Below, in pieces: positions 21,747 to 63,508 of a stretch of 64,000 bases of DNA. A model generated the notes under the pieces. The model had not been told where the DNA came from, searched no databases, and was given only the letters and a program-made list of their open reading frames with translations. Where the stretch lies: positions 32,001 to 96,000 of IMG/VR virus record IMGVR_UViG_3300017786_000003. One strand, 5' to 3'. The position numbers and the translations under genes are program-made. Positions within the stretch are counted from its first letter, which is position 1. Each line of letters starts with the position of its first letter. The stretch comes from a virus.

Positions 21747-22022
21747 TTATTTTTTCATTTTACCTAAAGTTAATGCTAACCTTGCACGTTGTGCAGTCTT
21801 ACCACTACCTTTAGCTTTTTGTCTCAACCAAGACTTCTTAATAGTTCCATCAGCTTTCATTGCTCCTGCTCTTTTAGCAGTTGCTTTTAAGGCTCCTGGC
21901 TTTTTAATTGCCCCCTTGATCCAGTTCTTACCAGATTTTTTTGCACCACCTTTTTTATAAGACACTACACTCTTAGGCATAGTTCCTTTTTTCTTAGCTG
22001 GCTTAATTTTTTTTGCTGGCAT
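21747..22022 (-). CDS. Small Lys-rich protein with YKKGG motif (putative internal/DNA-condensing)
   Basis: 91 aa, highly basic, with NWIKGAIKKPGAL...RARLALTL. Confidence 0.65.
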   Translation of the reverse strand: MPAKKIKPAKKKGTMPKSVVSYKKGGAKKSGKNWIKGAIKKPGALKATAKRAGAMKADGTIKKSWLRQKAKGSGKTAQRARLALTLGKMKK

Positions 22023-22027
22023 AATTA

Positions 22028-22441
22028 CTATTTTTTACTTCTTCTTCCTTGAGCACTTGATCTGTTACCAGAATAAGCTCTTTTACCTGCAGCTCTTTTA
22101 GCTCCTTTACTTTCATTTCTTCTAGACTTCATAGATTGTTTTTTCTTACCTCTTCTCATTCCTAGAGATTCATCTAATCTAGAATTGTATCCTTGCTTTT
22201 TCTTCTTTTTAACTGCTCCTCCTTTTTTATAAACATCCATTACATCTCCTCCTTCTTGCATTCCCATGAGACCTCCCATATCTGCAAATTTTCTTTGTTT
22301 ATTCATTCTTTCTGGAGAGACAAATGGGTCTCCATCTCCGGTAGTCATACCCATTCTTGCGTACATTTTTTGACCACCCTTTTGTTTTTTCATAAGTTTA
22401 TCTAACTTTTTACTTGCTTTATAACCTGATTGTGCTGGCAT
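22028..22441 (-). CDS. Small basic protein with four xxxGG motifs
   Basis: KQKGG, ADMGG, MQEGG and YKKGG, followed by a K/R-rich tail. Confidence 0.65.
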   Translation of the reverse strand: MPAQSGYKASKKLDKLMKKQKGGQKMYARMGMTTGDGDPFVSPERMNKQRKFADMGGLMGMQEGGDVMDVYKKGGAVKKKKKQGYNSRLDESLGMRRGKKKQSMKSRRNESKGAKRAAGKRAYSGNRSSAQGRRSKK

Positions 22442-22453
22442 GATTTCTATTTT

Positions 22454-22921
22454 TTATTTGTTATTACTAATTGACTTAAATTTTTCTGCCCCTCTGCTTC
22501 CAAAGTAGGCTACATAAACGGTAATGAGAAGTGACTTGAGTAAATCTACCCAGCCAGCATCAATACCAAACTCTATGTCAAAACCATCTAACAAAATAAA
22601 TATAACTAATGAAACAGTTAAAAATATTAATGTTAAAGGTCTTGTGTTCTTACTTAGATATGAATCAGATTGCATATCCGCCTGCCATCTTTTGCTGACT
22701 TCTTGCATCTCAACCATATCCATCTCTAAAAGCTTTAATGCTTTTTCTTTATCTTCTGGTGGTAACACAGCAGGGTCTTCCTTCTCTATAAGAGATTTAA
22801 CCATGCCAAGTACACCTGCATCTGGAAGTAAGTCTCCAGCTACGCCTAACAGACTAGGAACTTTCTCAACAAGAAATTTTCCCACTCTGGTGTCTTTGAA
22901 TTTTTTCTTTCCTTTGCTCAT
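22454..22921 (-). CDS. Holin-like protein (3TM / GTA-type family)
   Basis: RWQADMQSDSYLSKNTRP, hydrophobic helices and YFGSRGAEK. Confidence 0.75.
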   Translation of the reverse strand: MSKGKKKFKDTRVGKFLVEKVPSLLGVAGDLLPDAGVLGMVKSLIEKEDPAVLPPEDKEKALKLLEMDMVEMQEVSKRWQADMQSDSYLSKNTRPLTLIFLTVSLVIFILLDGFDIEFGIDAGWVDLLKSLLITVYVAYFGSRGAEKFKSISNNK

Positions 22922-22923
22922 AA

Positions 22924-23331
22924 TTATTTTTTCTTACTTGCAGTTACTTTACTTTCACCTTTAGTTACTGTAACATCTGTGTCAGTAACATCTACCTGCA
23001 TTGGATCATCTTCTTTATCAGACAACTCTTTAATCAAGCTCTTAATTATTTCTAACTCAGGCTTCTCTTCTTTTTCTTTTGCTCCAACTATATGTTGTAA
23101 TATACCTATCAATGCCATTGCTGCTGTAGATACCAAACCAATAACTGCTGTTAGTGCTCCACCTTCTAAAGCTGTAGAACTTACTACACCTATTACTACT
23201 AATACTGTGATATAATTTATAGCATGTTTACCTAAATGTTTAGATGCTATTTCTTTAGCTGTACTTTGAGCTACAATTTTATCAATCTCAATCTTTGCTA
23301 ATACTTCTTCTTTTAATTTTTCTCTACTCAT
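22924..23331 (-). CDS. Membrane protein (2 TM) next to the holin
   Basis: YITVLVVIGVV and LTAVIGLVSTAAMALIGIL hydrophobic helices. Confidence 0.6.
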   Translation of the reverse strand: MSREKLKEEVLAKIEIDKIVAQSTAKEIASKHLGKHAINYITVLVVIGVVSSTALEGGALTAVIGLVSTAAMALIGILQHIVGAKEKEEKPELEIIKSLIKELSDKEDDPMQVDVTDTDVTVTKGESKVTASKKK

Positions 23332-23334
23332 AAC

Positions 23335-24177
23335 TTAAGGATATATTCTTATTTCTACTCCTGTTCTTATTAATTCACTGTCACCAAGACTACCATTTTC
23401 CTGGGTGCTTAACTGAAAGCTTGCAGTAGTAGCACCAAATATATTAATCACTACTGTTTGATTTTTTAAATTACCTTGTACAGGTGCAAAAAATACTTTA
23501 TCCATATCAGCTAGAGCTGTGTCCCAAGTACCTCTATACACTCCTGTAGTTATACGTGTCCAAGTAATATTATTACCTGTTGTATTTTCTAATACTGTTG
23601 CAGCTGGTGCACCGGTTCCAGATTGATTTAACAAAGCAGTGTAGCTTGTATACGGCCTTCCACCTGTGGAATTTATTGTTATTTCATTTGCACTTTGTGA
23701 CACAGTAACATTTGTACCTTGCACAATACTTCTAAAATTAAGGGTCTCCCCTACTTTATCTTTAAAAATTTGTGATCCACCACCTACATTTGCTGCAGTA
23801 TTTGGTTCACCACTTGTTGTTATCTCTACATAATCATCATCTGATGAATTAGCAAGAGTAAGGTTGCTGCTCAGAGACTTTAGTGATCTAAAATAAACAG
23901 TACATGTTTCTTCAACATCATCAGATTCTGTCTTCTGATATACTTGACCTGTGCCAGCAGCTGGATTAGCTGGAGAATTTGCGTGTGCACAATGTTCTGC
24001 AGCAACCTTAAAATCTCTCACCTTTATCACCTTTACACTTTTGTATGGTATAGGAGATGCTACACCTGTCATATCAGGCTTTTCATTCACCCCTAAAATC
24101 AATACATCGTCTAACTCAGCCTTCTTAGCAAAAACAGATCTTCTTATTAAACTTAATACATCAGTTAAAATGTTCAT
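23335..24177 (-). CDS. Short tail/head appendage protein
   Basis: N-terminus (MNILTDVLSLIRR) is similar to the two fibres. Contains fibre-like LNFRSIVQGTNVTV and a beta-rich C-terminus. Confidence 0.6.
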   Translation of the reverse strand: MNILTDVLSLIRRSVFAKKAELDDVLILGVNEKPDMTGVASPIPYKSVKVIKVRDFKVAAEHCAHANSPANPAAGTGQVYQKTESDDVEETCTVYFRSLKSLSSNLTLANSSDDDYVEITTSGEPNTAANVGGGSQIFKDKVGETLNFRSIVQGTNVTVSQSANEITINSTGGRPYTSYTALLNQSGTGAPAATVLENTTGNNITWTRITTGVYRGTWDTALADMDKVFFAPVQGNLKNQTVVINIFGATTASFQLSTQENGSLGDSELIRTGVEIRIYP

Positions 24178-24479
24178 TTTTTCTTCTTCTTATTCTTTTT
24201 CTTATAAGAAGATGTCCATCCCCCTATCTTGTATGGTTGTTTTGATTCAGTACCATCTGCTCTTTTTGCATTCCTTAAAGCATTGCCTCCCTTTTGCATC
24301 TTATTTATTAAAGAGTTAAGAGATACATCTGCTAGGTCTAGTTCACCACCAAGCATTTTACCAGATACGTCCATTGATCCTTCTTTAAGCATATCATCTA
24401 TTGCGGCTGCTTGAGCCCCATGCATTTTAGATGCTTTCTTTAATGCACCAGATATTTCTTTTAACTTCTTCTTTGCCAT
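24174..24479 (-). CDS. Small basic protein with xxxGG motifs
   Basis: KMLGG, MQKGG and YKIGG, plus a poly-Lys tail. Confidence 0.65.
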   Translation of the reverse strand: MAKKKLKEISGALKKASKMHGAQAAAIDDMLKEGSMDVSGKMLGGELDLADVSLNSLINKMQKGGNALRNAKRADGTESKQPYKIGGWTSSYKKKNKKKKK

Positions 24480-31530: not shown

Positions 31531-34500
31531 TTATTTAATAAAGAAGTCACTATTTTTAAGATAGCTATCCCATTTTTGGAATGTATACCAAATAGGAACA
31601 ACATCTTTCCAATTTTTAGCAAGTTTCAGTTCTCCTTTTCTAGGCTTATTTTGATATACATACTCAGAGTTCTCTCTAAATTCTTTATCACTATAATATA
31701 CATAAGCTATTGGAGTTCTAAAAGATAAAGATAAAGCCTCACCCAGTTCTCCTAATGTTCTTGTAGCTGCTATAGGTGACTTAAACATTTGATACTGTTG
31801 TTTTAATCCAGAAGGATGCGGTGTAAATAATACTAATTCTTTATATGTTCTATCTGCTTGATATTTAGCAATATTTTTAAATCTTTTTGTTAGTTCTGAG
31901 TCATCATCATCACCAGCTAACATTACTTGCATTAACTCACTAAGTAAAAATACTGATATCATAATTCCTATTTCACCTGCAGTTCTGTAGAAACCATATA
32001 GTTTGTTCTCTGCTCTCTGATCAATATTACCTCCTTCTCCAGTCCAATCATGATCTTTTAAAAATCCTTCTTTATAAGTATTAAACTGTAGATTACCTGT
32101 TGCTGCTGTTTTTAAAGCATAGTTTATAAACTTCAAAGCGGATATATATCTACCTTCCATCCATCCAAGGTTTTCATCAAAGTATTCTCTTTGATATCTT
32201 GCTCTAAATGCTGGCATAACCCATTTATGAAACTGTGCTGCTAAGTTACCAAGCGTTGTACTTTGAATAACCATTCTATCTTCTTTAGCATAGTTACCAT
32301 GAATTTGTTTATTAACCTCTCTTATTTTATTTCTTAAGTCATATCTATACTCATCAGTATAAGCCACTTCTCTACCACCTTTTTCAACTACAGTATCAAA
32401 TCCTTCTTTAAGTTCATTCTTATGTGTTTTAGGATTATAGGTAAATGCATCATATAAAGAGAGTGTCTCACCTGTTGTACTATTTTTAATTGTAGTATCC
32501 ATCAACATGGCCATACCTACTTTAGTTTGTACATTGTATTCTGCTGCATCCTGAAGAACATATCCCCACTCAGCTGCTTTAGCAAACCAACTTTGGCCTG
32601 TAGTAGTATCTGCTCCCTGTTCACGTATGTCTGTCATTTTATCCATCATCCTAAACATATCTACAAAAGCTTCATATTTACTATTAGCTTTCTCAGGATC
32701 ATAATCAACTTTACCAACACCTTTAGCTGCACCAAAAGTAGCAACATAACCTAAATCTTTCATATAATAACTAGTTCTAGAAACAATATCAGGAATAGCT
32801 CTTTGATTAAAAACTTTTACAGCTCTTAGATATGATGATCTATTAAAGAATCTTTGACCAAGCATTTCTATATTATTGTTCACTCTACCAATAACATAGT
32901 TGTTAAAGTTACCAAACGGGTTAAAGGCAACATAAGTAAGAGAAGAAACTTGAATTAGCTTATCTGCTATTTTATCAAACATTCCTTTGGATATTTTGTG
33001 GTTATCATAAAAGGTCATAGACATCCACTTCTTAGCTCGTCTAACAGCATTTGCTTCTAACTTGTTACTACTTATTTTTTGTCCAACCTTTTTAACAGCA
33101 CCTTCTACCACACTGAAAGATTCTATATCTGTTTCAGGTGAACCATATTCTCTTTGTTCTAGTACCTTTACCATAGAATTTAATGTGTCTTCTACAGTAC
33201 TCATTGTCTCATAGTTTTGAGCCATTGCAATAAACTTTAAAAGACTATCAGTAAGATCTTTACTAATCTGACCTACAGTTGGAGTAGCTCTTAACCTTGC
33301 TATCTTACCATTAAGTTTTTTTAATTCTATATCATACTCACGTGCTCTAATTTTATTTTTCTTTCTTTTACTTTTTAATTCTGTTCTTTCTGCTTCAAGC
33401 TTTTCTAGTTCTCCTTCAACTCTTGCATTACCAGTAAAGTAAATTGGTAAAGTGCTTACCACATTACCAAGCTCATCAGTAGTAACACCCTTTTGCTGAG
33501 ATGTACCTTGAGTAAACATAGAAACATTTTCAACTGTTTCTGCCCACTTTCTAGCTATAAAGTTCTTTTTGCCTTTTACTTCAGCTAACATTTTTTGTTG
33601 AACTACAGGAAGTCTACCAAGCATATTAGTTATATGTCCAGGAGGAAGCTTTTCCAATTGCTGTTTATAAACTGCAGTCCACATCTCATAATATTCTTTT
33701 TGTGCTTGTCCTAGTGCATCTGTAGGATTCATAATCTTAAGATACTCCGGACTTAAAACACTTTCACCATCTATTAGTGCATCATCTTTTATCTCTCTAT
33801 ACTCTGTTTTTGGAAAAGCATTGCTACCCTCATTAAATACTGTAGCACCAGTAGGTTGACCCTTAAAATATACTGGTCTAAGCTTTTCTTCATTAGGCAT
33901 AAAGTACTTAGCTTTATATTGGATGTACTCTGCTTCAGAAACAGTGGCTCTTTTTTTCCACTTTATAAATCCTATCTCAGTATTTACAATTGCATATTCA
34001 TGAATATCTCTAGCATCTTTAAACTCTTGAGTATATCTGTGGATATCACCATCTATTATATTCCCAGCATCATCAACTTGTTCAGCCTTAAAAAAGTTAC
34101 CTAAAGCTGCTTTGTCTTCTGCAAGTTGTTTATTATGTTCTAATTCCTCTGGCTTAGCCTTAAATGTATTAGGTATGTCATAATATAAACGTGGTTTACC
34201 ATCACTATCAAAAGTCTTTTGTCTTAACTCATGTTGTTTATTTTTATAGTTTGGTCCTATCTTTTCTACATATGTACCATCATCCTTAGCCATAAAATTA
34301 TATATCTTCTGAGGATCAGTTTCTGCAGATAACTTAATTAATTTATCAGCAGCTTGAAGTACCATATCTTTTTGAACAGATATTTTATCAAGCATCTTTT
34401 GCATAGCTGCTTTATATATCTTGTCCATTATAGCTAATATTACATCAGGAGATGTTGCCATATCTCTAGTTTGATAGTCCATATCAGTAATGTCAGGAGC

Positions 34501-43200: not shown

Positions 43201-46200
43201 TACAAATCTTGTATTGCATCAACAGCTTGATTTTTTCTTTTCTTATCAGATATAAGTTTTTCTTGTTTATATAAAAACGCTTGTGCCCATCTATCCATTT
43301 GTGAATTAATATCATCACGTTGGGCAGCAGAATAAACTAAGCTATTACCTTGTTGGTCTATCTCAGTAAATATATACTCAACTCTAAAGTTTGAGAAACC
43401 TTTTATAATTTGTTGTAAGAGTAAAGGATCTTTAATTGGCAATGACAATGCTGACCCATCAAGTATTGCTTGTGGATTTATTTCTCCAAAAGTATCTAAT
43501 AATATTCTATCTATTACTGCACCAGAGTTCACATTAGACTGTCCAAATAAATATAAACTTTTTAATATGTCTATAGGAGCAGTAAGATTCTTAACTGATT
43601 TTAAAATACCATTATATGCCTCATTAAAATTAACAGGAACTATTAATGGCTCACCTTCTACCAATATAGTATTACCAAAATAATCTTGTTCTGTTACAGT
43701 AGTAGTTGCTAAGTAAGCTCTTAAGAAACCAGGTATACTATTTATTCCTCCTATGTTTGAAGCATCTGTATCAAATTGTGATGCAGATCTAATACCTGTT
43801 ATATCTGAAAAGTATTCTTCATTATACACAGCATCTACTAATTGACCATTAATGATATTTAAATATTCAAATACTTGTTCTTGAATAACATCTTCAAACC
43901 TATCAAAGGCTAAACTTATTTCTGTTAGTCTTTGTTTTTGTATGTCTGATCTTTCTGCATTAATTGGATTTTCAATATTATATAAATTTCTAAAGTTATC
44001 TAATACCTCATTCATTACTTCTCTAGGACTATATGGTCCTTCTGATGCAGCCTTGCGTTCAGCTTGAATATAATGTGCAGCAATACCATGTATAAGTGGA
44101 TTGGCAATATTGTTACTTAAATACAAGTTTCCTTTTACACCATTTTGAGTAATCTCAGCATATGGTACTAATGCATTTGCCTCAGAAGCAATACCAACTT
44201 GCATATCTGCAGTGAATTGATTTCTAACCAATGATGCTCCTTTAAACTTACCAGCATCTATAGATTCAAATAAACTATCTAAAGAAGCAAGTTCTGTCTT
44301 AGCACCTAACACAGATTTAATCCATTCCATTATTCTATTAAAGAAAGACTTTATAATACTATTAGTCTTTGTACTCTTAGGATTCATTTTAAATTTTTCA
44401 AATTCATCTGCTAAGTACTCTTCGTAATATTCTCTTTCTAATTCTGCTCTAGTCATATTTGCATATGTATCAGCAGAGTTCTTAAATTTCTGAAGTTCAA
44501 TTTCTAAACTCTTTCCTTCAGATCTAAGTTTTGCTCTCACTTCTTTTTTAGCTATACCAATATACTGGTTTATTTGCTCATCAGTTAACAACATTCTAAA
44601 CACACCGTGAAAAGCCTCATGATATTTAAATGGAGAATTTGCTCCTGTGTATATTGTACCATTAATCTTTAGTTCACCTGCAATCTCCTTAAGCACCATT
44701 ACAAAAGCACCTACTCTAACCCCTCCTGCTTTCAGGTTATTACCTAAAGTCTCTATATCAGCTGTAGTTATAAAATCAGGTAATGCTCCTTCTGCCCATG
44801 TAGTAAAAGTATTTATATCTTCAATATCTTCTGGTTTGAGTTCTGAAGTATCTCTTACAACTTTATTAGCACCTTTATCTAATTTTTTTCTAAGCTTTAA
44901 AAGGTTTTGGTATTTCTTACTTTCTCTTAGGACTTTACCTTTTTCTTTAAAAGGCACGCCTTGTGTAAGTTCTTCTTTTAATTTATCTAGTTCAATTATT
45001 ACATCTGATAAAGATGCTACTTCATTAGTTGGATTTTCTATTTCAGAAGTATCTATTCCTTGTTTCTGTTTAGAATTAACTAATAAAGTTATTTCAGTAA
45101 TCCTAGCTGATTCAAGTTCAGTTTCTCTTTCCGTAAGTTCTTCTCCAGCAACTCTTTTCTGTACTATCTTATTTATATATTCAACAGGTACTGATGCAAA
45201 TCCTTCATCTTTATAATCAGCAAAGTCTTGATCAGAAATTTCTTCTAGTTCTACAAAAACAGTGCTTGATGCTGGAGCCCGTGGTACTGATACATCTTGT
45301 TCTGGTGCATCTTCTGTTTGTGTATTAACACTATTAATAACTTTAGTTAATTGTAATGCTTGTAAAACACTTTGACTACTTGCATTCAGTAAAAGCTTCT
45401 GTGGCACAATTACATTATTAGCCACAGGTGTTGTTGTATTATTTATAATAGTATTTACATCTGTATTCCTAGGCAAGTGTTCTCTAAAGTTTTTACTACC
45501 TAATACAACAGTTTTTCCTTTGAATTTTATTTCTTTATTAACTTCATCATTATTAAACTTTTCTATTAAGTTACTTAGTTTCTTTGCAGGAGTAAGACCC
45601 TCTTCAACTTTATTTACTTCATCTTTATCTAATTCATAAAATGTTCTTTCTTTAGTAAGCTTATTATATTTTAATAACTGAACTTTACCAAACTTATCTA
45701 CTTTTAATTCTAAATCATATCCTTGAGCAAAACTAATAAATAAAGAATTCTCTAAATCTATATTGAATTGTTTTGGATATTTATTATTTTTTTGTACCTC
45801 TTGAGCTTTTGTTATTAAGCTTATTGCTAAATCATTCATTTGCTGAGGAGTATAAGATCTAGCCTTTAAAGGAACTAATACATAGGTACCATTAGGTAAA
45901 AGAACTGCAGCTCTATATCTATCACTATTTTGTCTAATACCTGAAGAATTACCTTTGCTTTGTTCAACCATCTCTGACCATTGTCCAGACTTTTCTAATC
46001 CTGCTTTAACTTCTTCTCTTAGTTTTTTCTGTTCTGCAAGAGTCTTTTTATTTGTTACTGGTACAACAGTCCCTGCTTGTATATCATAGATTATTAACCC
46101 ACCGGAGTTATCAGAAGTGTTATACTGTAGAGTATCAAATGAGTTGAGTATACCTTTCTGCATATCTAGTTTAACACCTTGCAAACTAAAACTCATACCA

Positions 46201-54398: not shown

Positions 54399-57300
54399 TT
54401 ACATTCCCATTTTTCCACTATAAAATGGCATTACCCATTTTTTAATTTTTTTCTCCATACCATGTTTACCCTCATCTACTGAGACATTTGATCCAGGATA
54501 TCCCGGTATACCTCTTGATTGTAACTCTTGCTGTCCATATGTGGTACCTCCAACATTAGGTAAACCTGAGTGAGTATCCTGATATATTCTATTCTCTATT
54601 TCTTTTGTAGGTTGTACACCAGTTATTCTTGTATACTCTGCAATTTTTCTAAAGTATGCTTGATCAGCATCTTCCTTGTTTTGTTTAAAGAACTGTTTAC
54701 CTTGGTCAGTAAATTCTATTTTTCCATACTCATCTGGATTTATACCATAATAATCATATAAACTATTCAAGTTAGCAGTATTAGCTTTATTTGTTTGAGC
54801 AGTATTCATTAATTCAACAGCTTTATTTATATAAGCATTATCAAAGTTATCTGCATCTTGTAGTGCTTTTACCGTACCATCATATGCATTCTGATCAATA
54901 TCAGCTTGTGCTAAATTAAATTTATAATCTAACTGAGGCTGCATCATTCCTACTTGGTTCATTGTTCTAACATTATTCTGATTAACTAAATTAATAGCTT
55001 TTGCATTAGCCGCCATTGTTTTACCTTGTATATTACTACGTGCAATCTGTTGCGGTCCATAAGTAGACAAAGCCTCAGCCATAGTATTTTGTGCACCTAA
55101 GTTTGCATTTATTGCCTGTGTTGGATCATCTAATACATAATCTATAACAGGTCTTTCTAATTGTGGAGCATAAGGTAAATATAAATTATCCTCCATCATT
55201 CCTAAAGCTCTTAGATTATTTAAATCTTGTTGCCAGAATCTATCAATAGGTGGATCAGCTTCTTCTATAGGGTTTGGTTCTATTGGATCATCTGGAATAT
55301 CAAAAAATTGTTCATCATCAGAACCAAAATCTATATCTAATCTTGGTGCATTAAATGTATGGAAACCAAATTTACTATCAAAACCTTCTCCTTTTATATA
55401 ACCTTCACTACCCTTTTCTTTAAAGTAGGGCACATATAACTTATTATATAACTCTTCATTAAATACTCCATTAGCGTCTGTAGCTAATTTTCTAGCTTCT
55501 TCTTGTCTTGTTTTTTCTGCAAGTTTTTGGAACTCACCCCACTGCTTATTATCTCTACCAGCGTCATAATCAAACCCTTCTATTTGTTCTACTACATCTC
55601 CCCATCTTTCCATGAAGTCAGCTTCACCTTCTTCACTCATAAATACACTAGAACCATAACTACCTTCACCTGCTTTAAACTGTTTCAATGGTCTTGAACC
55701 TTTTGAATATCTGCCGTATCTATACTGACCTATAGGAGAACCTTCAAGTACTTGCCCTTGTGTCTCTATATCATCTGAGTATATAACAGTTGATCCAGTT
55801 CCTTCACCTTCTATTTCTTCTCTTACTCTTTCATGACTTTTATCAAATCTACCTTGATATGGTCTGTATGCTCTAAGTCTACCATCAGAAGTTAAACTAA
55901 AAGTATATCCTTCTCTTCTATACTTTTCCATTTTATCATAGTTTTCACTACCTTTTGGAAATGGATTCTTATAGTTATCTACATTCTCATCAACAGTCTC
56001 TTCAACAGTAGATACTACATCTGCTGAGCCTTCAGTATTATCTGATTCTATAATTTCACTTGTAGAAACAGATAAATCTTCTGGATATGTTGGTTTATTA
56101 AATATATCATAATTATCTATATCTGTTAATGCTTTACCATACATTTGTTTTTCTTCATTGGTTAAGTCATCTAAAAATTTCTTAGGTATTGTACCATCTA
56201 TACTTCTATGCAAATCTTGTCTAATAACATAATCAATATATTCAGCTCTTCCTACTGGCCTTCCCTGAATCTCATACATAGAGCTAGTAGTTACTCCAGC
56301 ACGTGCTCCTGTATTCTCACCACCATCTTGCATCTTTCTAAAATTTGGTAACTCAAAGTTTTCTGATTGTTCTGGTAACTCACTTAGCTGTAATGATTTA
56401 AATAATCTAGTAACAACTGGTTCACTAAATGTAGATTTTTGATCAAAATTTGGTAATTGAAAATCTACTGATTGACTAGGCAATGAAGATAGATAATTAT
56501 ATTGTGGAGTGTTTGGTACAAAAGGTATTTTATTAGCTCCTGTAATAGCATCTAATTGTGATTTTGTAGGCATACCCGGTATTTGTTGTCCAGGAACACC
56601 GCCCTGTTGAGCTTTCTTCATAGATTCTTTGATGGCAGCATCTCTTCTTGCTAAATATACATCTTCTCCTTTTGGTCCTCCATATGCTGCTGTTTGCATC
56701 ATATCCATGTCTGCCTGTGCTAGTTGCATTTGGTCAGCAGGGTTTGGCTGTTGAGGTTGTACTGGCATTGCTTCAGCTTGTTGTAACATTGCTTGAAGCA
56801 TCATAAGTTTTTCTTGTTCTCCTGGAGGCATAGCGTCAATTGTATTTTGTTGTGCTTGTTGTTGAGATATATTTTCTATTTTTGCTGTAAACTCTAAAGG
56901 GTCTACTCCCACACTCAATAAAAAAGGATGTGCTATTAAAGGTACACCTTCTTCAAAATTCTTTTTATTTTCTTGCATGAATCCTAATTTAGATAAATCC
57001 ATCATATTTTTCTTTAACATAAGCTCTGCACTTCTTGATGATATGTCATCAGCATATTGAGAATCTAATTCAGCATAAAAATCATTAATATCAAACTTCT
57101 TTGAAATTGCAGCTGGTGTTTTTTTCTTTTTACTTTCAATACCAAACTCTGCCATCTCATCTCTATCAAATTTCATCTTTGCTGTATCAGAAAAAATAAA
57201 TGATTGCTCAGGTAAAAACATAGGTGTTCCCCCTTTAGAGTGTCTTTTACCCCCTATATCATATAAACCAAACATACCATCACCTGACAAATCTGTTAGG

Positions 57301-57560
57301 ACTGTTTCTCCACGTTCTGCTTCTACGTTTGCATTTTCTCTAGGTACACTAGATAAACTATATCTAACGTTCTCATCACGTGTATTATTAAAACTAGTTT
57401 CTCCATAGTATTCCTGTGGAACTGAAACCAAACCATAATCAGCTTGATCACCAGTAGTATACATATCACCACCAGTACGCATAAATTTGTCTTCTACAAC
57501 TTTACCGTTTACTAATTTAAATCCTTTAGGTAATTTACCTTTTAGTTTTATTTTTGCCAT
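54399..57560 (-). CDS. Virion cargo protein with xxxGG motifs
   Basis: 1053 aa. N-terminal NVEAERGETV...GKRHSKGG...FIFSD segment and Q-rich linkers with AAYGG, AQQGG and MQDGG. Confidence 0.6.
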   Translation of the reverse strand: MAKIKLKGKLPKGFKLVNGKVVEDKFMRTGGDMYTTGDQADYGLVSVPQEYYGETSFNNTRDENVRYSLSSVPRENANVEAERGETVLTDLSGDGMFGLYDIGGKRHSKGGTPMFLPEQSFIFSDTAKMKFDRDEMAEFGIESKKKKTPAAISKKFDINDFYAELDSQYADDISSRSAELMLKKNMMDLSKLGFMQENKKNFEEGVPLIAHPFLLSVGVDPLEFTAKIENISQQQAQQNTIDAMPPGEQEKLMMLQAMLQQAEAMPVQPQQPNPADQMQLAQADMDMMQTAAYGGPKGEDVYLARRDAAIKESMKKAQQGGVPGQQIPGMPTKSQLDAITGANKIPFVPNTPQYNYLSSLPSQSVDFQLPNFDQKSTFSEPVVTRLFKSLQLSELPEQSENFELPNFRKMQDGGENTGARAGVTTSSMYEIQGRPVGRAEYIDYVIRQDLHRSIDGTIPKKFLDDLTNEEKQMYGKALTDIDNYDIFNKPTYPEDLSVSTSEIIESDNTEGSADVVSTVEETVDENVDNYKNPFPKGSENYDKMEKYRREGYTFSLTSDGRLRAYRPYQGRFDKSHERVREEIEGEGTGSTVIYSDDIETQGQVLEGSPIGQYRYGRYSKGSRPLKQFKAGEGSYGSSVFMSEEGEADFMERWGDVVEQIEGFDYDAGRDNKQWGEFQKLAEKTRQEEARKLATDANGVFNEELYNKLYVPYFKEKGSEGYIKGEGFDSKFGFHTFNAPRLDIDFGSDDEQFFDIPDDPIEPNPIEEADPPIDRFWQQDLNNLRALGMMEDNLYLPYAPQLERPVIDYVLDDPTQAINANLGAQNTMAEALSTYGPQQIARSNIQGKTMAANAKAINLVNQNNVRTMNQVGMMQPQLDYKFNLAQADIDQNAYDGTVKALQDADNFDNAYINKAVELMNTAQTNKANTANLNSLYDYYGINPDEYGKIEFTDQGKQFFKQNKEDADQAYFRKIAEYTRITGVQPTKEIENRIYQDTHSGLPNVGGTTYGQQELQSRGIPGYPGSNVSVDEGKHGMEKKIKKWVMPFYSGKMGM

Positions 57561-57562
57561 AA

Positions 57563-60500
57563 TTATAACATTTCTATATCAGCTCCCGCTGCAATTAATT
57601 TTGCTAATATTGATGAGTCAACATTAACAGTCTCACCACCCTCTTGTCTTCTGGTTCCAGTTTGTCCTAAATCTAAACCTGAAACAAAGTTTAACGGATA
57701 TCCTTCAACATCTGAAGATACTGATTGTATTGGTTGTGACTCAATAACAGAAGCTGCAGGAATGTTGTATTGCTTAAGTAAATTCCTAGCTTCATCTAAC
57801 TGAGTTTGTATCTTAGGTAGTTGTCCAACATATCTTAAAAATTGTGGATCTTCTCCTCTTATTGCATTTGGATCATTTTGATCATATGGCCCATCTACCA
57901 TTGGAAAATTACCTTCATTAAAATCTAATCTAGTTCCACTATCTGCTTGATATGCGTTAAATGTTGGTTGCATCACAGGCATACCATCTTCATCATAAGT
58001 ACCAGAAGTTGTTTCTTCTCCAGGACCAGAATAAATACCTGTATGATGAGGTCTCCAAGATTCTCTATTACTATGCTTTCCTCTATATGTAGTTGGTGCG
58101 TAGCTATACATAGATACCATATCACCTAATTCTGCCTCATCATCACTAATTAACTCAAATGGTATTGAACCTGCACCAGGAAACTTAGAGCCATAAGCTT
58201 TTTCAGTTAAACTATAATTACCACCCAAAGTTGGCATATCATATGCTCCTGCTTGTTGGTATGCAAAACAACCATATGGAGTACAATATAATTCATCATC
58301 GTTACTACCAGTAGTACCAAGTGTACTATAAGGTGTATCACTACCTGCTCTAGTTTTTGGTAATGCATCCTTTATCATTTGAGGTAACTTCTCATATGCA
58401 CTCATCATTTCTTTTCGGCTAGTTGCTAGTTGAAAGTCTCTGTATAATTGGTAATCTTCGTCAGACATTCCTCCCTCACTTGGACTTAAAAACATCCTAT
58501 CATCTGCTTGATCCAAAAATTCTGATGTACCTAGTATATTATCTCTTACTTCATTAACTCTTGTTTCTTCTGTATTATATAAGTTTTTAATGTAATTATA
58601 ATAAGCACGAGCTGATGCACTATCTTTTACACTTTCACTAGTAAGACTCCCGCCATCTTGGGCTTTAGCCATTTCTCTTTTTATAACTTTATCTCTATTA
58701 GCTAGATAAGCTGCTTCTCCTTTCTCACCACCATATTCAGATACTGAATTCATATATAAACCAGTTACATAGTCTGAGTCAGCACCAGTTCTTCCTGTGT
58801 TTATATCAGTAGTACCTTTATAATTAAATGGTTGTGTGTATGTATTAAATCTTTCATCTGCTATTGCACCCATTCTATTATCTACTTGTGCATCAAAAAT
58901 ATCATCTCTTTTAGCAAACTTAGTTAATTCTGGAGCTAACTGAACAGCTACGTCACTTACATCTTCAAAACCTCTCATAAAGTTACTATCCCTAAATCTA
59001 TTATAAGCTCCTTCTATTCCTCCAGTATTTATATTTATTTCTGGTGGTGTAATTTCATCAAAAGCAGCTTGAGCTTCAGCTTGAGCCTTTTCTTGCATTC
59101 CTTGTTGATTCTGTTCATTTAAAGAATCTAACGTTGCTTGGTTCTGTTGTTGTGCTGGTGTTGGACCTACTAATGGATTTCTTTGTCTGAATTCTTCATC
59201 TTCTACCATTTGCACAGATGTGCTGTAATCTAAAAAAGGTACATTAAAATCAAAGATATCAGAACTATCTTGTTGTGGAAACATAGCACCTCCATCTTGT
59301 TTTTGTGGAAACATTTTTTGTAATGCTTCTAATGTTGCATTACCTACATTACCTAAATTTTCTTTTTGAGTAGCTGCCCAGTCTTTGAAATCTTTTTGTA
59401 AGTTACTAATCATTCTTTCAGTGCCAAGCCCTCCACCTGTAACTGTCTCATTAAAATTACCTACATCAATATTAGAAGCAATTTCATTTGCATTTTCTGA
59501 TGACTTTAGTAAGTCTACATACTTTTGCATTGCAGCCATATTATCTTCAGATAAAAATTCATCCATATTCTTTATTGAATACTCTGCATCTTTAAATTTA
59601 TTAGATCTATTTATATCTTTTTTTGCCTGCCAATCTCTGAATGTTCCATCTTTAACACCATCTTTATTTAGATCTTTGCCACTAAACATATCTTCATATC
59701 CAGTACGTAGAGTATTAAAAATATTAGCATAGTTGACATCTCCATCTTCAAATGCAACTGGGTTAATGTAAAATGGCTTAGCATTTATAACATCATAATT
59801 ATAATTCTTATCAATCTTATACGTTGGGTTTGGGTCTGCAATTGTTCCCATACCACCATATTGCATTTGGGGTGCTTGCTCTTTTAATTTTTTTAAACCT
59901 GCTCTTCTATATGCATCAAATTTACCAACACCGTTCATATCACGGCTATATGCTCCAGTATTAATTGGTACTAAAACATTATCTATTATAGCTTGAACAC
60001 GTTCTGGATCTTCCAAACCAGTATAAAAATCTGAACCTCTTAAATCTTCTAGGGTCAAATTAAGTTGAGTAGTCATATCTATTTCCTCACCACCTTCTTG
60101 TTTTTTAAACTTAGCAGCATTACGTGCAAAATTAGCCATTTTTACTACTTCGGTAGAATACTTCTCTTTATTAGCTAAAACCTTTCTAGCAGCTTCTTGT
60201 ACACCCATACCACGTGCCTTAGCCCATTTAGTAAACTTACCTCTATTTTCTTTTTTAATTTCTATGCCTGATTTAGCATACTCATCTATTACATCTACAT
60301 TAAGATCAACAGGATCCATTTCACTTTCTACTGATTCATTTCTTGCTAGCTCTTGAGGATTTTGATTTACTTGTGCAGGAGTAGCAAGTTCAGGTTGCAT
60401 TCTTTTAACAACTTCTTGAAAGACCTGTTGTATTTGGACTTCTTCCATACCACCCATCATAAGTGCTTGAGCTATAACTTGTTGATCTATTTCTTGTGTA

Positions 60501-60670
60501 GAAAGTTCTGTTACTACATCAACTATATCTTTTCCTTGTTTAACTGACTCACTAATCATCATAGTAACTTTCTGAATCATAGGATCCGGTTGCTGATTAT
60601 TTTGCATACCAGGTTGCGTTGGAATCATTTGTCCTCCTTGTTGTTTTAAACTTTTTTTGTTTAATTGCAT
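57563..60670 (-). CDS. Modular cargo protein with small basic domain and C-terminal NlpC/P60-like domain
   Basis: 1035 aa with seven or more xxxGG motifs. Contains GIEIKKENRGKFT...ANFARNA and YCTPYG...GDMV...HHTGIY. Confidence 0.65.
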   Translation of the reverse strand: MQLNKKSLKQQGGQMIPTQPGMQNNQQPDPMIQKVTMMISESVKQGKDIVDVVTELSTQEIDQQVIAQALMMGGMEEVQIQQVFQEVVKRMQPELATPAQVNQNPQELARNESVESEMDPVDLNVDVIDEYAKSGIEIKKENRGKFTKWAKARGMGVQEAARKVLANKEKYSTEVVKMANFARNAAKFKKQEGGEEIDMTTQLNLTLEDLRGSDFYTGLEDPERVQAIIDNVLVPINTGAYSRDMNGVGKFDAYRRAGLKKLKEQAPQMQYGGMGTIADPNPTYKIDKNYNYDVINAKPFYINPVAFEDGDVNYANIFNTLRTGYEDMFSGKDLNKDGVKDGTFRDWQAKKDINRSNKFKDAEYSIKNMDEFLSEDNMAAMQKYVDLLKSSENANEIASNIDVGNFNETVTGGGLGTERMISNLQKDFKDWAATQKENLGNVGNATLEALQKMFPQKQDGGAMFPQQDSSDIFDFNVPFLDYSTSVQMVEDEEFRQRNPLVGPTPAQQQNQATLDSLNEQNQQGMQEKAQAEAQAAFDEITPPEININTGGIEGAYNRFRDSNFMRGFEDVSDVAVQLAPELTKFAKRDDIFDAQVDNRMGAIADERFNTYTQPFNYKGTTDINTGRTGADSDYVTGLYMNSVSEYGGEKGEAAYLANRDKVIKREMAKAQDGGSLTSESVKDSASARAYYNYIKNLYNTEETRVNEVRDNILGTSEFLDQADDRMFLSPSEGGMSDEDYQLYRDFQLATSRKEMMSAYEKLPQMIKDALPKTRAGSDTPYSTLGTTGSNDDELYCTPYGCFAYQQAGAYDMPTLGGNYSLTEKAYGSKFPGAGSIPFELISDDEAELGDMVSMYSYAPTTYRGKHSNRESWRPHHTGIYSGPGEETTSGTYDEDGMPVMQPTFNAYQADSGTRLDFNEGNFPMVDGPYDQNDPNAIRGEDPQFLRYVGQLPKIQTQLDEARNLLKQYNIPAASVIESQPIQSVSSDVEGYPLNFVSGLDLGQTGTRRQEGGETVNVDSSILAKLIAAGADIEML

Positions 60671-60689
60671 GATGATTATATTATAATAT

Positions 60690-60700
60690 TAATATACAAA
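60690..60700 (-). promoter_or_regulatory. Putative promoter element TTTGTATATTA
   Basis: Exact copy of the 24993/25067 motif, 19 nt upstream of ATG 60670. Confidence 0.55.
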
Positions 60701-60730
60701 TAATTAGGGAGAATCACTAATCTTTTAGGT

Positions 60731-63508
60731 TTAAGAATTGCCTGCAACATAAGTCATAATGTAATTAGCAGGACTCATATTCATAGCTTTAGCATCTCTA
60801 TAATAAACTCTATTAAGTTTATCATATACTTTTTGACCAATTATTTCTTCTTGTTTTGTTTTGAAATTACCATTTATATAATGTTTATAAATAGCATGTG
60901 GATTACTCATACTTCCACCATCTTGACCTTTAGGTAATGTTTTAATTTTACCGTTCTCAGTTCTAGCATATCTGTTCTTTTCATTTTCCATGCTAGGAAT
61001 AAGTGTGCCTGAATAAGTTTTACCTTTCCATTGCCAGCTAACTGATCCACCTTTTTTATATTCAGGTCCTTTTACATTTCCATCTTTATCTTTAAAGTAT
61101 ACGTTTTCTGAAAGACCTTCTGTTTCTCCTTGTTTAGTTCTTACATACCCGTCTGGCAAAAGATTGTTATATGAAAGGTATTTTATAACCTCATCTTTTT
61201 TAGAATCATCTATATTTAATGATCCAACAATTGATCCAACATAATTATTAAATGTGTCTTCTCCCATTTCTAGAAGCTTTGCTAAGAATGGTCTTTCATC
61301 TCCGCCAAATATAGTTCTTAACTCATGTCCTACACCTAATAGATTTGAACCTATAAAACCAGCTGCTTTGTCTACACCAACAGAATCTAATAGTCCACCA
61401 ACATAAGGTATATCTTTAACTTTTTGTTGTATTGCTTCTGCTGCATATCTACCTCCTGCAGCATGTCTCATATTATCAATACTATTTTCTTCACCAGGAT
61501 TCTCAGCAAAAGCTTGAGCTCTATCATTTACATTATCTAAAGATGCATTAATTAATTTTTCTAGATCAGAAAGAAAACTGGTTTTAGGATTTGACCTCTG
61601 AATTGCATTTACATCACCACCTTCTTGAAAACCTAATTTGTCTTTCCAGTAATTTGGTATATTTTTAATACCTTCCATAGAGATGTCTATATTAGGAACA
61701 TCTATACCTAATTTTTCAATTGCAAATCTATTTGCTTTATCTTTAGCCATATCTAAAAGCTCAGGTGCCCACTTATCTCTTTCATAAATTACTGTTTTTA
61801 ATGCAGCTGGTATTGTTCCATCTGGAAGGATATTATATATCTCTTTTGCATCAGAACCTACCTGACGTAATCTTTTTGCTGCTTTATCCTGTCTGCGTTC
61901 ACTGGGCTCATCACCAAAAGGAAGGAAGCCAGATATAACTGTATCAAGATCTTTTAATGTTTGATCTGTTATGTCACCAATACCCTTATCTTTTATTGCT
62001 TCTATTGCTGTAGGATTATGTAATACTGTTTCTACTACATCATTTATTTCATCTCTATCTAAACCATCTAAATAATTTGTAAGAAGATTAATAGTAGTAG
62101 CATTAAGATCTACTTTTGCTTCTTCTTTTACTAATTTTGTTAACCCCTCAAATCTACTTGTCCTTTTTCCTTTTACACTTCCTGGAACTATTTTATCACT
62201 ATAATTTTCTAAAATATTATCCATAACAAAATTAGGATCAGTAATACCCCCTCTACTATTTTCTGGTGAATTAGGATCCATACCTAAAGCCAAACATACC
62301 CCAGTAGCACAATTAGAATCTAAAAAGTCATAATTATATATGCTTTCATCCTCCAATGATATAGGAAGTTTTTCTGGTCTCAATCTTACATCATCATGAA
62401 TAGAACTTCTTTCAGTACCTTCAAATAATTGTGCTTGATTTATAAAACCTTTTATTTCATCATCAGATAAATCTAAATCTAAAACTCTTACGTCATCTTT
62501 CCCTTTATAATCTCTTTCACTAACACGTTTATTTCCTGAACCAGTTGACCATCTATTTACACGGCCAACTAACTTAGTACCAGGTATTACATTTACTTGA
62601 TCACCTGTATCAGTATTAATTAGTACAGCTTCAATATGTCCAGGACTAAACTTTTTACTTCCATAAGGATATTGTATAACTCTTACATTATATTTTGAAT
62701 AATCTATATCATTAATTCCTTTAGATCTTTCTGGGTCACCACCGTCTTGTAACTGACTTGCTTTGGAACCTTTGTTTATTGTTTTAGCTGCCAACTTAGC
62801 CTGGAGAGGAGTTACACCTTTAATTGCTTTGAGGGGTTTAGCAAAAGGTATTATACTTAATGCATTTAGTGCTGCGTTACTATAATCACCACTATCTAAA
62901 CTATCAGCTGATTTATACGCAGCATTAATTGGATTAAAAAAATCTATTGCACTTGTAAAAGAATCTTTTTCAACTTGTCCAGCATCTATACCCTTATCAA
63001 AATTATATGGTACATTTCCAGTATTAAATTTTTCTTTAATAGTTGCAAAAGGATATCTAACAAATGATCTTATGTCACTTTTAAAATTATCAAGCATGCT
63101 AGGTGCTTGTGTTATTGTACCTCCTTGTTGAAATTGTTCTGGTTGTTCTAACTCAGGTTGCATTCTATAGTTAGTAGTAAGTTCTTCTCCTTCTTTTAAA
63201 TCTTTCAATGCATATACAAATCTTTGATCACCTACCTTTTTACTCATCATAGTTGGTGATTCTTCATTATGATTATGCATCTTACCTAACTGAGTAACAG
63301 GTTGTCCACCTTTATGTGCTAAACCTATTAGCTCACCCTGTTTAAAAGATCTTCCTGCAAACATACCATCTCCTTCTATATCAGAAGGGGCTTGAAATAT
63401 ATCACTCATAGGTGCATTAGAACTAAACACACCAGTTACATAGGTAAACATTTCATTAGGTCCACCAGGTAATCCTCGTCTTTCTTTCTCTTCAAAATAT
63501 TCTTTCAT
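60731..63508 (-). CDS. Multidomain cargo protein: SET + permuted papain-like + DUF6973-like + Tudor-like
   Basis: 925 aa with domains separated by FQQGG, LQDGG, FQEGG, YKKGG and GQDGG (see findings). Confidence 0.7.
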   Translation of the reverse strand: MKEYFEEKERRGLPGGPNEMFTYVTGVFSSNAPMSDIFQAPSDIEGDGMFAGRSFKQGELIGLAHKGGQPVTQLGKMHNHNEESPTMMSKKVGDQRFVYALKDLKEGEELTTNYRMQPELEQPEQFQQGGTITQAPSMLDNFKSDIRSFVRYPFATIKEKFNTGNVPYNFDKGIDAGQVEKDSFTSAIDFFNPINAAYKSADSLDSGDYSNAALNALSIIPFAKPLKAIKGVTPLQAKLAAKTINKGSKASQLQDGGDPERSKGINDIDYSKYNVRVIQYPYGSKKFSPGHIEAVLINTDTGDQVNVIPGTKLVGRVNRWSTGSGNKRVSERDYKGKDDVRVLDLDLSDDEIKGFINQAQLFEGTERSSIHDDVRLRPEKLPISLEDESIYNYDFLDSNCATGVCLALGMDPNSPENSRGGITDPNFVMDNILENYSDKIVPGSVKGKRTSRFEGLTKLVKEEAKVDLNATTINLLTNYLDGLDRDEINDVVETVLHNPTAIEAIKDKGIGDITDQTLKDLDTVISGFLPFGDEPSERRQDKAAKRLRQVGSDAKEIYNILPDGTIPAALKTVIYERDKWAPELLDMAKDKANRFAIEKLGIDVPNIDISMEGIKNIPNYWKDKLGFQEGGDVNAIQRSNPKTSFLSDLEKLINASLDNVNDRAQAFAENPGEENSIDNMRHAAGGRYAAEAIQQKVKDIPYVGGLLDSVGVDKAAGFIGSNLLGVGHELRTIFGGDERPFLAKLLEMGEDTFNNYVGSIVGSLNIDDSKKDEVIKYLSYNNLLPDGYVRTKQGETEGLSENVYFKDKDGNVKGPEYKKGGSVSWQWKGKTYSGTLIPSMENEKNRYARTENGKIKTLPKGQDGGSMSNPHAIYKHYINGNFKTKQEEIIGQKVYDKLNRVYYRDAKAMNMSPANYIMTYVAGNS

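Follow-up and report, generated by a model that had tools for sequence, protein, structure and literature searches.

Crassviruses rank among the most abundant of known phages. The question addressed here is how they store, eject and diversify their cargo proteins. The locus that raises it lies in a 64,000-nucleotide stretch of viral DNA (positions 32,001 to 96,000 of the IMG/VR record IMGVR_UViG_3300017786_000003), referred to below as the window. The record, from an uncultured marine crAss-like phage, is 107,860 bp long and has a completeness estimate of 94%. On the minus strand of the window, three consecutive genes encode large proteins, P0001, P0002 and P0003, that carry a five-residue motif ending in Gly-Gly. 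An original prediction, made from the DNA sequence alone, proposed that the three are strewn with this motif. It viewed them as beads-on-a-string proteins, with swappable domains that are either released by cleavage after Gly-Gly or tagged by the motif for loading into the capsid. Here, we report that P0001, P0002 and, in part, P0003 are chains of swappable modules, each ending in a conserved Gly-Gly peptide. We refer to such joints as seams. As to what the seams do, we lean, with modest confidence, towards seams that remain uncut in modular cargo of the polyvalent type, and that act both as a hinge and as a point of in-frame cassette exchange.

All 16 pentapeptides originally listed were found, each at the position given for it. 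The relevant features are listed below by protein, with positions numbered from the start of the window. Note that crAss001, mentioned in the lists, is a gut phage, that aa stands for amino acids, and that pLDDT is the predicted local distance difference test score of an AlphaFold model. The features of P0001 are as follows.

60731..63508, minus strand: P0001, 925 aa, a predicted modular cargo or polyvalent protein (from its translation and homologues)
63167..63283, minus strand: SET domain core, P0001 residues 76-114 (Pfam PF00856, E 7e-5, 23.6 bits against a cut-off of 22.4)
63119..63133, minus strand: FQQGG, residues 126-130, seam after the SET module (38 homology breakpoints at residues 130-139; pLDDT 26-29)
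62738..62752, minus strand: LQDGG, residues 253-257, seam before the His-Cys module (a confident fold begins at about residue 258)
62098..62737, minus strand: predicted His-Cys domain, residues 258-470 (from the AlphaFold model and its structural neighbours)
61616..61630, minus strand: FQEGG, residues 627-631, seam closing an optional 370-aa module (orthologue deletions and breakpoints)
61046..61060, minus strand: YKKGG, residues 817-821, seam (many alignments begin at 817; a low-pLDDT segment ends at 822)
60914..60928, minus strand: GQDGG, residues 861-865, seam before the conserved C-terminal handle (25 breakpoints at residues 860-869)

Those of P0002 and P0003 are as follows.

57563..60670, minus strand: P0002, 1035 aa, the protein densest in motifs here and, by family hidden Markov model (HMM) match, a probable relative of cargo protein C1 (gp45)
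60632..60646, minus strand: KQQGG, P0002 residues 9-13, near the N terminus (a motif lies within the first 25 residues in 97 of 120 homologues)
60089..60103, minus strand: KQEGG, residues 190-194, seam that follows the NKGKFT module (its aligned counterpart in crAss001 gp45 is NAFGG)
59852..59866, minus strand: MQYGG, residues 269-273
59288..59302, minus strand: KQDGG, residues 457-461
58649..58741, minus strand: 31-aa cassette from SEYGG (residue 644) to AQDGG (residue 670), residues 644-674, common to P0003
57566..57649, minus strand: RQEGG, residues 1008-1012, with the 23-aa C-terminal tail ETVNVDSSILAKLIAAGADIEML
54399..57560, minus strand: P0003, 1053 aa, with a conserved N-terminal 235 aa, a variable, cassette-bearing middle and a conserved C-terminal half
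57468..57482, minus strand: MRTGG, P0003 residues 27-31 (M27, G30 and G31 are invariant in 30 homologues)
56319..56690, minus strand: P0003 cassette region, comprising AAYGG (291-295), the 31-aa cassette, AQQGG (317-321), a 93-aa cassette and MQDGG (410-414)

Is the motif more frequent than the composition of these proteins predicts? Counts of [QKE]xGG were compared with those in 300 residue shuffles of each protein. P0002 has seven matches, where 1.27 are expected, and none of the 300 shuffles reached seven. For P0001 the count is five, compared with 1.44 expected (P ~0.01). The two matches in P0003 are not a significant excess over the 1.48 expected. Similarly, the 4565-aa virion RNA polymerase (vRNAP) encoded further along the strand has four matches, with 3.3 expected, and xQxGG is absent from both this protein and a 1906-aa protein. 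The comparison extends to 74 related IMG/VR loci, gathered using the P0003 alignment as query (a search with P0002 alone returned no relatives). We refer to the families of P0001, P0002, P0003 and the adjacent P0004, across these loci, as the P1, P2, P3 and P4 classes. In counts that are not independent events, since the sequences share kinship, the P1 class has 2.3-fold more [QKE]xGG, and 4.3-fold more QxGG, than expected. For the P2 class the values are 3.7-fold and 4.9-fold. There is no enrichment in P3 (0.87-fold), P4 (1.05-fold) or muzzle proteins (0.91-fold), and the vRNAP has [QKE]xGG at 0.98-fold and QxGG at 0.44-fold.

One account of the motif would be that proteins rich in Gly and Gln generate such pentapeptides by chance. 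The lack of enrichment in P0003 is in keeping with this, and KKGG in a set of basic, Gly-rich open reading frames (ORFs) at 21747-24479 may be compositional. For P0001 and P0002, however, the shuffles and the 74-locus enrichment exclude chance: QxGG is 4- to 5-fold enriched family-wide, compared with the depletion in vRNAP, and the positions of the motif are conserved. We regard chance, as a general explanation, as very improbable indeed. We conclude that the motif is genuine in two of the three proteins said to be strewn with it. P0003 carries it only at residues 27-31, where the invariant form is MRDGG, and in the cassette-bearing middle.

The residues flanking Gly-Gly follow a pattern. Three residues before the pair is K, Y, F, A or M. 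Two residues before, Q is enriched 3.5- to 6.7-fold, and K and E are also frequent. One residue before is K, D, E or Q, and the residue after is often E or S. The consensus seam peptide at cassette ends is [F/Y/M/K/A]-[Q/K/E]-x-G-G, often then E or S. This amino-acid pattern persists across families at 30-40% identity. Codons for Gly and Gln at the motif match background usage (GGT 59-68%, CAA 84-87%). Hence, selection acts on the peptide rather than on the DNA. The motif recurs in hundreds of homologues, every one from an uncultured source, and no description of a Gly-Gly motif was found in the literature searched.

Where do the seams lie with respect to protein modules? Of the internal BLAST breakpoints, 53% in P0001 and 58% in P0002 are positioned 10 aa or less from a motif, compared with 12-13% for random positions; note that the breakpoints, taken from related sequences, do not count as independent. 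In the AlphaFold model of P0001, all five motifs are in low-pLDDT segments, and confident folds start directly after residues 257, 822 and 867. This pattern fits linkers but is weak alone, because 56% of residues in the model score below 50 (mean pLDDT 54). Taken with the clustering of breakpoints, it bears out the expectation that the motifs occupy domain boundaries.

Orthologues differ by whole cassettes between motifs. P0127 and P0128, which are 87-93% identical to P0001, lack exactly residues 258-627, the module between LQDGG and FQEGG. A longer stretch, beginning at the same LQDGG seam, is missing from P0130. Likewise, P0009 and P0010 are 99% identical save for one 98-aa cassette, flanked by NMQEGGE and NFKEGGE. 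Cassettes common to paralogous genes also retain their Gly-Gly ends. The 31-aa cassette of P0002 matches P0003 residues 293-321 (19 of 29 identical; BLASTP, E 4e-10). The 93-aa cassette of P0003 has a counterpart, with 69% identity, at residues 800-885 of P0019, which belongs to the P0002 family and is encoded on another contig; KMQxGG forms the end of both. Exchange of cassettes therefore occurs exactly at the motif, and some seams are merely 6-25 residues apart. These comparisons strongly support the proposed beads-on-a-string arrangement, with swappable modules bounded by motifs.

Exchange at the motif could also mean that the motif has no role in the protein, and is a by-product of recombination. 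In this case, strings of the type CAA-NNN-GGT-GGT-GAA would provide microhomologies for cassette shuffling. Insertions, deletions and cassette transfers are indeed located exactly at the motif, and the strong bias towards GGT and CAA makes identical 12-mers frequent. Conversely, codons are used no more uniformly at the motif than in other places, with no sign of nucleotide constraint. Furthermore, the pattern is kept between families of low identity and at fixed positions (the P2 N terminus, and M27, G30 and G31 of P3), and unrelated folds share the same terminal peptide. A recombination by-product is thus improbable.

The modules between the seams are varied. P0001 consists of an N-terminal handle (residues 1-30), the SET module, a helical stretch, a predicted His-Cys hydrolase with a helical module, a further helical module, a small beta module and a C-terminal handle of ~60 aa. 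In homologues, residues 1-30 (GLPGGP) and 862-925 are constant. The middle swaps SET, SLT, LysM, ART-PolyVal (PF18760), Amidase_2, YkuD and other domains, Phage_lysozyme2 among them. In the P1 family, the tail after the last motif has a median length of 58 aa. The equivalent P2 tail (median 23 aa) is nearly invariant, and KEEGGE is present near residue 190 in most of the P0002 homologues listed. Some of the domain labels assigned originally stood, namely SET (by Pfam) and His-Cys (by fold). The DUF6973-like and Tudor-like labels had no support from sequence searches, and nor did NlpC/P60 in P0002 residues 675-1007, for which Pfam, NCBIfam and PDB sequences gave no support.

Several observations on these modules can be made in their own right. 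The minimal SET methyltransferase module near the P0001 N terminus is widespread in the family (PF00856 is found in many homologues), and F-x-x-GG always follows. Relatives P0193, P0186 and P0180 have recurring mini-modules between seams. One has the pattern GG-Y-[IV]-D-x-E-L-x-x-E-E-I-E-x-Y-x-K-GG-Y-[IV]-V-E-E and another is a four-Cys zinc ribbon, KKVTCKKCGWKWDAxDGG...CHxCGG. In the same relatives, a Pro-rich start, (V/I)PG(E/Q)QIPGMPTK, recurs straight after GG. The most conserved stretch of the whole P0002 family is the tail ETVNVDSSILAKLIAAGADIEML (P0002 residues 1013-1035; 57566-57634, minus strand). It faintly resembles WLDTLAKSGV, close to the C terminus of crAss001 gp45, which hints at a C-terminal element common to both and at a partner for it.

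Proteins assembled in this way are known. Polyvalent proteins join many unrelated effector domains in one polypeptide that is delivered with DNA (Iyer et al. 2017, PMC5512222). The P0001 family resembles them in its domains (ART-PolyVal, SLT, LysM, Amidase_2, YkuD, SET and a peptidase-like domain) and in its extensive mosaicism. P0001 itself joins two unrelated effector-type domains, SET and what is predicted to be a permuted NlpC/P60-like hydrolase and, with its mosaic family, belongs among the polyvalent proteins. Unlike those described, however, the cargo chains here begin and end in constant handles, and nearly all of their joints bear a defined seam peptide. The paper on polyvalent proteins names no junction motif, and the terms 'linker', 'glycine', 'crAss' and 'SET domain' do not occur in it (PMC5512222).

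Are P0001 to P0004 cargo of the virion? The genome encodes crassvirus markers detected with Pfam: Crass_capsid (the major capsid protein), CrAss_Ring_1 and CrAss_Ring_2 (tail ring proteins 1 and 2). The order of genes on the minus strand is a 2118-aa muzzle-like protein, P0001, P0002, P0003, P0004 (1119 aa) and the 4565-aa vRNAP. This order (muzzle, P1, P2, P3, P4, vRNAP) is retained in the 74 related viral contigs. The 2118-aa protein has weak but collinear similarity to the crAss001 muzzle gp44, and the vRNAP matches crAss001 gp47 and gp50. In crAss001, gp45 and gp46 are described as cargo kept within the capsid and the tail (Bayfield et al. 2023, PMC10172136; PDB 7QOG, 7QOI, 7QOJ, 7QOL and 8CKB). 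As here, the C1 (gp45) gene lies between the muzzle gene and RNA polymerase-associated genes. By position, P0001 to P0004 are probably cargo genes of a crassvirus, and gene order and homology to C1 suggest that the products are packaged and injected. At the level of genes, the virion-cargo role assigned to them originally is borne out by this order and by a module that P0002 shares with gp45.

The shared module, NKGKFT...ANFAxNA...GG, makes a convincing match at the level of sequence, within an overall similarity that is weak (P2-family HMM against gp45 residues 357-637, 19.1 bits, E 1e-7 against only 4 sequences). In the gut phage cr127_1, the C1-like protein starts with the same module, which there, too, ends in GG. 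Moreover, gp45 is Gly-rich, with 20 GG dipeptides, and its ordered segments begin at or just after GG: SAYGG (206-210) precedes a helix (214-245), and NAFGG (424-428) opens a domain (425-552). Unlike the present phage, crAss001 is without dense, regular [QKE]xGG punctuation or long swappable strings of enzymes, and the paper describes neither a motif nor cassette exchange (PMC10172136). A search of the genome with the Pfam family crAss_CARG1 (PF25725), up to E 10, gave no match. We also considered whether the 31-aa cassette is equivalent to the gp45 tail-barrel helix (214-245). This was rejected, as the alignment beyond AYGG(P) is no better than with shuffles. Other phages offer few points of comparison. 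Megablast of the region against GenBank phages, and tblastn of P0003 against phages, gave no match, and tblastn of P0002 gave only one, a 40-aa module in cr127_1. Hence, no cultured relative is at hand.

The comparison with gp45 bears directly on the state of the seams. The P0002 seam KQEGG aligns with NAFGG, and the GG of this peptide (427-428) is inside the continuous segment 425-552, reported as one compact, ordered domain bound to the portal (PMC10172136). In the same work, gp45 is modelled as one chain bridging the tail barrel and capsid, and proteolysis is nowhere mentioned. This joint is the only one on which structural data exist, and it favours an uncut state. We infer the uncut state from this one homologous joint and from the lack of a conserved protease, described below. 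The restriction of enrichment to the P1 and P2 classes, with values of about 1 in P3, P4, vRNAP and muzzle proteins, was also counted in favour of uncut seams.

How might an uncut seam work? P0001, P0002 and the middle of P0003 would each be a string of exchangeable cassettes between constant terminal handles. In the virion, the seam peptide would stay intact, cap the element that precedes it (as a helix cap) and supply a flexible Gly-Gly hinge. Each bead could then fold, unfold and, N terminus first, thread independently through the portal and tail. The seam would also be the sole place where in-frame gain, loss or transfer of cassettes occurs or is tolerated. The conserved side chains preceding GG may also dock weakly against the particle's inner wall.

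Some observations sit uneasily with uncut seams. A passive hinge leaves unexplained why unrelated modules (SET, NKGKFT, and His-Cys plus helical) share one five-residue ending. Motifs are found 9-16 residues from the N terminus of P0002-family proteins, with no domain before them. The motif also bounds conserved terminal peptides (the 23-aa P2 tail, the 58-aa P1 tail and the 31-aa P3 head), and internal proteins of phage T4 have the same layout of targeting peptide and processing site. Finally, the structural argument concerns one joint, in a distant gut phage, with the off-consensus sequence NAFGG.

These points lead to an alternative, in which the seams are protease sites. The polyprotein would be cut after Gly-Gly, in the capsid or after injection, to free cell-wall hydrolases, SET and ART enzymes and further modules, and to remove the terminal targeting peptides. 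A specific pattern, selected at the protein level and spanning three residues before GG and one after, would suit a cleavage site. So would the convergence of unrelated folds on one ending, and the position of motifs next to conserved terminal peptides. In addition, a single chain mixes compartments, with peptidoglycan enzymes (SLT, LysM, Amidase_2, YkuD) alongside SET and ART-PolyVal. There are precedents. Processing between Gly-Gly and the next residue is established for adenovirus (by adenain), African swine fever virus (by pS273R) and ubiquitin-like proteins; the enzymes belong to clan CE, and include Ulp/SENP acting on SUMO QTGG. Like adenain and pS273R sites, the seams end in Gly-Gly and occur in proteins predicted to be packed in capsids, and the Gln two residues before GG recalls Q-T-G-G of SUMO. 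However, two residues before GG the seams have Q, K or E, whereas Met, Ile or Leu occupies that position in the adenain consensus. In MARTX toxins, and the internal head proteins of T4 and phiKZ, multi-effector or packaged proteins are freed by a dedicated protease at a short motif. The parallels are a beads-on-a-string layout, short conserved boundary motifs and terminal targeting peptides. Conversely, those systems have an identified protease (CPD, gp21 and gp175) and other motifs (cut after Leu, LxE and AxE), and no protease of this kind was found here.

If the seams are cut, which protease is responsible? One candidate is the His-Cys domain in P0001. This region has a confident fold (pLDDT 86) and its structural neighbours are TseH (Z 7.8), YiiX (7.4), MARTX RID (6.9), 3kw0 (6.8), Aichivirus 2A (5.6) and the deSUMOylase 2wp7 (3.9), with these VIA-align Z values in a range where only a shared fold can safely be claimed. 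TseH is a type VI secretion system effector, and all of the top neighbours are permuted papain-like folds. The model supports a circularly permuted NlpC/P60, papain-like fold with a His...Cys dyad. Invariant residues are found in GH.E (G-H-x-E), N..W, Y and NCA. The best viral neighbour is a LysM protein, and a profile search against PDB sequences found nothing meaningful. The domain occurs in 4 of the 74 loci, and in 1 of the 13 near-complete related genomes used to score presence and absence. Since 70 of 74 loci lack it, as do 12 of 13 near-complete genomes that retain the motifs, a role as the general GG protease was rejected. Identity as a C97 (PPPDE/DeSI) deSUMOylase was also rejected; PF05903 had no match, and resemblance is to TseH and YiiX rather than to 2wp7. 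The domain is an optional passenger, and its most likely identity is that of a cell-wall or effector hydrolase.

Other proteases were sought in the genome. Unlike clan-CE systems that cut after Gly-Gly, the phage encodes no Ulp1-type protease (C48) detectable with PF02902, although C5, C57 and C63 were not searched one by one. The PPPDE family (C97, PF05903) had no member in the genome, and neither S77 (PF03420) nor S78 (PF04586) prohead proteases were found at E up to 10. A Pfam scan of the 78 other ORFs identified no GG or prohead protease family among the 25 of 34 families listed; the only peptidase-like families among the matches listed were DUF2201_N and Peptidase_S74. HEXXH does not occur in P0001 to P0004. 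It does occur in the vRNAP.

44607..44621, minus strand: HEAFH, vRNAP residues 2114-2118, a zincin-like HEXXH signature and candidate packaged peptidase (a lead only)

In the form YHEAFH, this signature is retained in the vRNAP of 60 of 70 related loci. It is also present, at position 2157, in crAss001 gp47, which is known to be a virion protein; invariant Glu residues follow downstream. Zincin-like peptidases, embedded or linked, have been predicted to process polyvalent proteins, and are also predicted in virion RNA polymerase (PMC5512222). Against this, the HEXXH region of vRNAP has no significant match among Pfam or PDB profiles, be it to a peptidase family or to a structure (Pro-Pro endopeptidase appears at E 0.93). 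Cleavage would therefore have to involve a conserved packaged protease, for which this gp47-like region is the candidate, or a host enzyme, and not the His-Cys domain. Furthermore, cuts at seams 6-25 residues apart would yield tiny peptides, and the corresponding joint of gp45 falls within a domain that is modelled as continuous, in one bridging chain. Neither release by cleavage after GG nor a role as a loading tag, the two functions proposed originally, gained support in any test. We consider cleavage a serious, though less likely, alternative and continue to favour an uncut seam that acts as hinge and exchange point.

Further features of P0003 and P0002 relatives, and of the wider genome, were noted. 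The N-terminal region of P0003 (residues 27-170; 57050-57482, minus strand) has residues invariant in 30 homologues: E80, E82, E85, D90, G104-x-R106-H107..G110-G111, S120, S124 and D125. The conserved domain had no family match. In an ESM-Atlas feature search, P0003 residues 1-240 were near clusters bearing crAss_CARG1 (hit 0.92), which is a lead only. At two related loci, L014 (6345-9928) and L029 (7339-9998), the P0002-like gene appears as two overlapping ORFs, divided soon after the NKGKFT module. Fission at a seam was rejected as the cause, since the breaks are away from any GG motif; the split genes may result from frameshift or assembly error.

Elsewhere in the window are three small, very basic, Lys/Gly-rich ORFs, all on the minus strand.

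21747-22022, minus strand: small basic ORF, 91 aa
22028-22441, minus strand: small basic ORF, 137 aa
24174-24479, minus strand: small basic ORF, 101 aa

They carry MQEGG, MQKGG and YKKGG, and similar K-x-GG sites are present in homologues from 5 of the 13 related genomes. From their sequences, these could be DNA-associated internal proteins, or the motif could be merely compositional. Other genes in the same genome encode ribonucleotide reductase subunits, Cpn10 (GroES-like), a DUF2201_N and VWA-like pair, DUF4846 and a Peptidase_S74 tail-fibre chaperone domain.

The presence of a seam peptide at nearly every module border of two cargo families provides a simple rule for parsing giant proteins that otherwise cannot be annotated. 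It also means that the payload changes, over evolution, by swapping cassettes at fixed points, and the five-residue seam is a defined experimental target. Should the seams be cut, polyprotein delivery by phages would take a new form, and these marine crassviruses would be the first known case of tailed phages that deliver a programmable effector polyprotein, in which each swappable cassette has its own release signal. Should they remain uncut, they would offer insight into how a string of enzymes can pass along a narrow tail. In either case, laboratory systems for loading foreign modules into phage particles could adopt the seam as a design rule.

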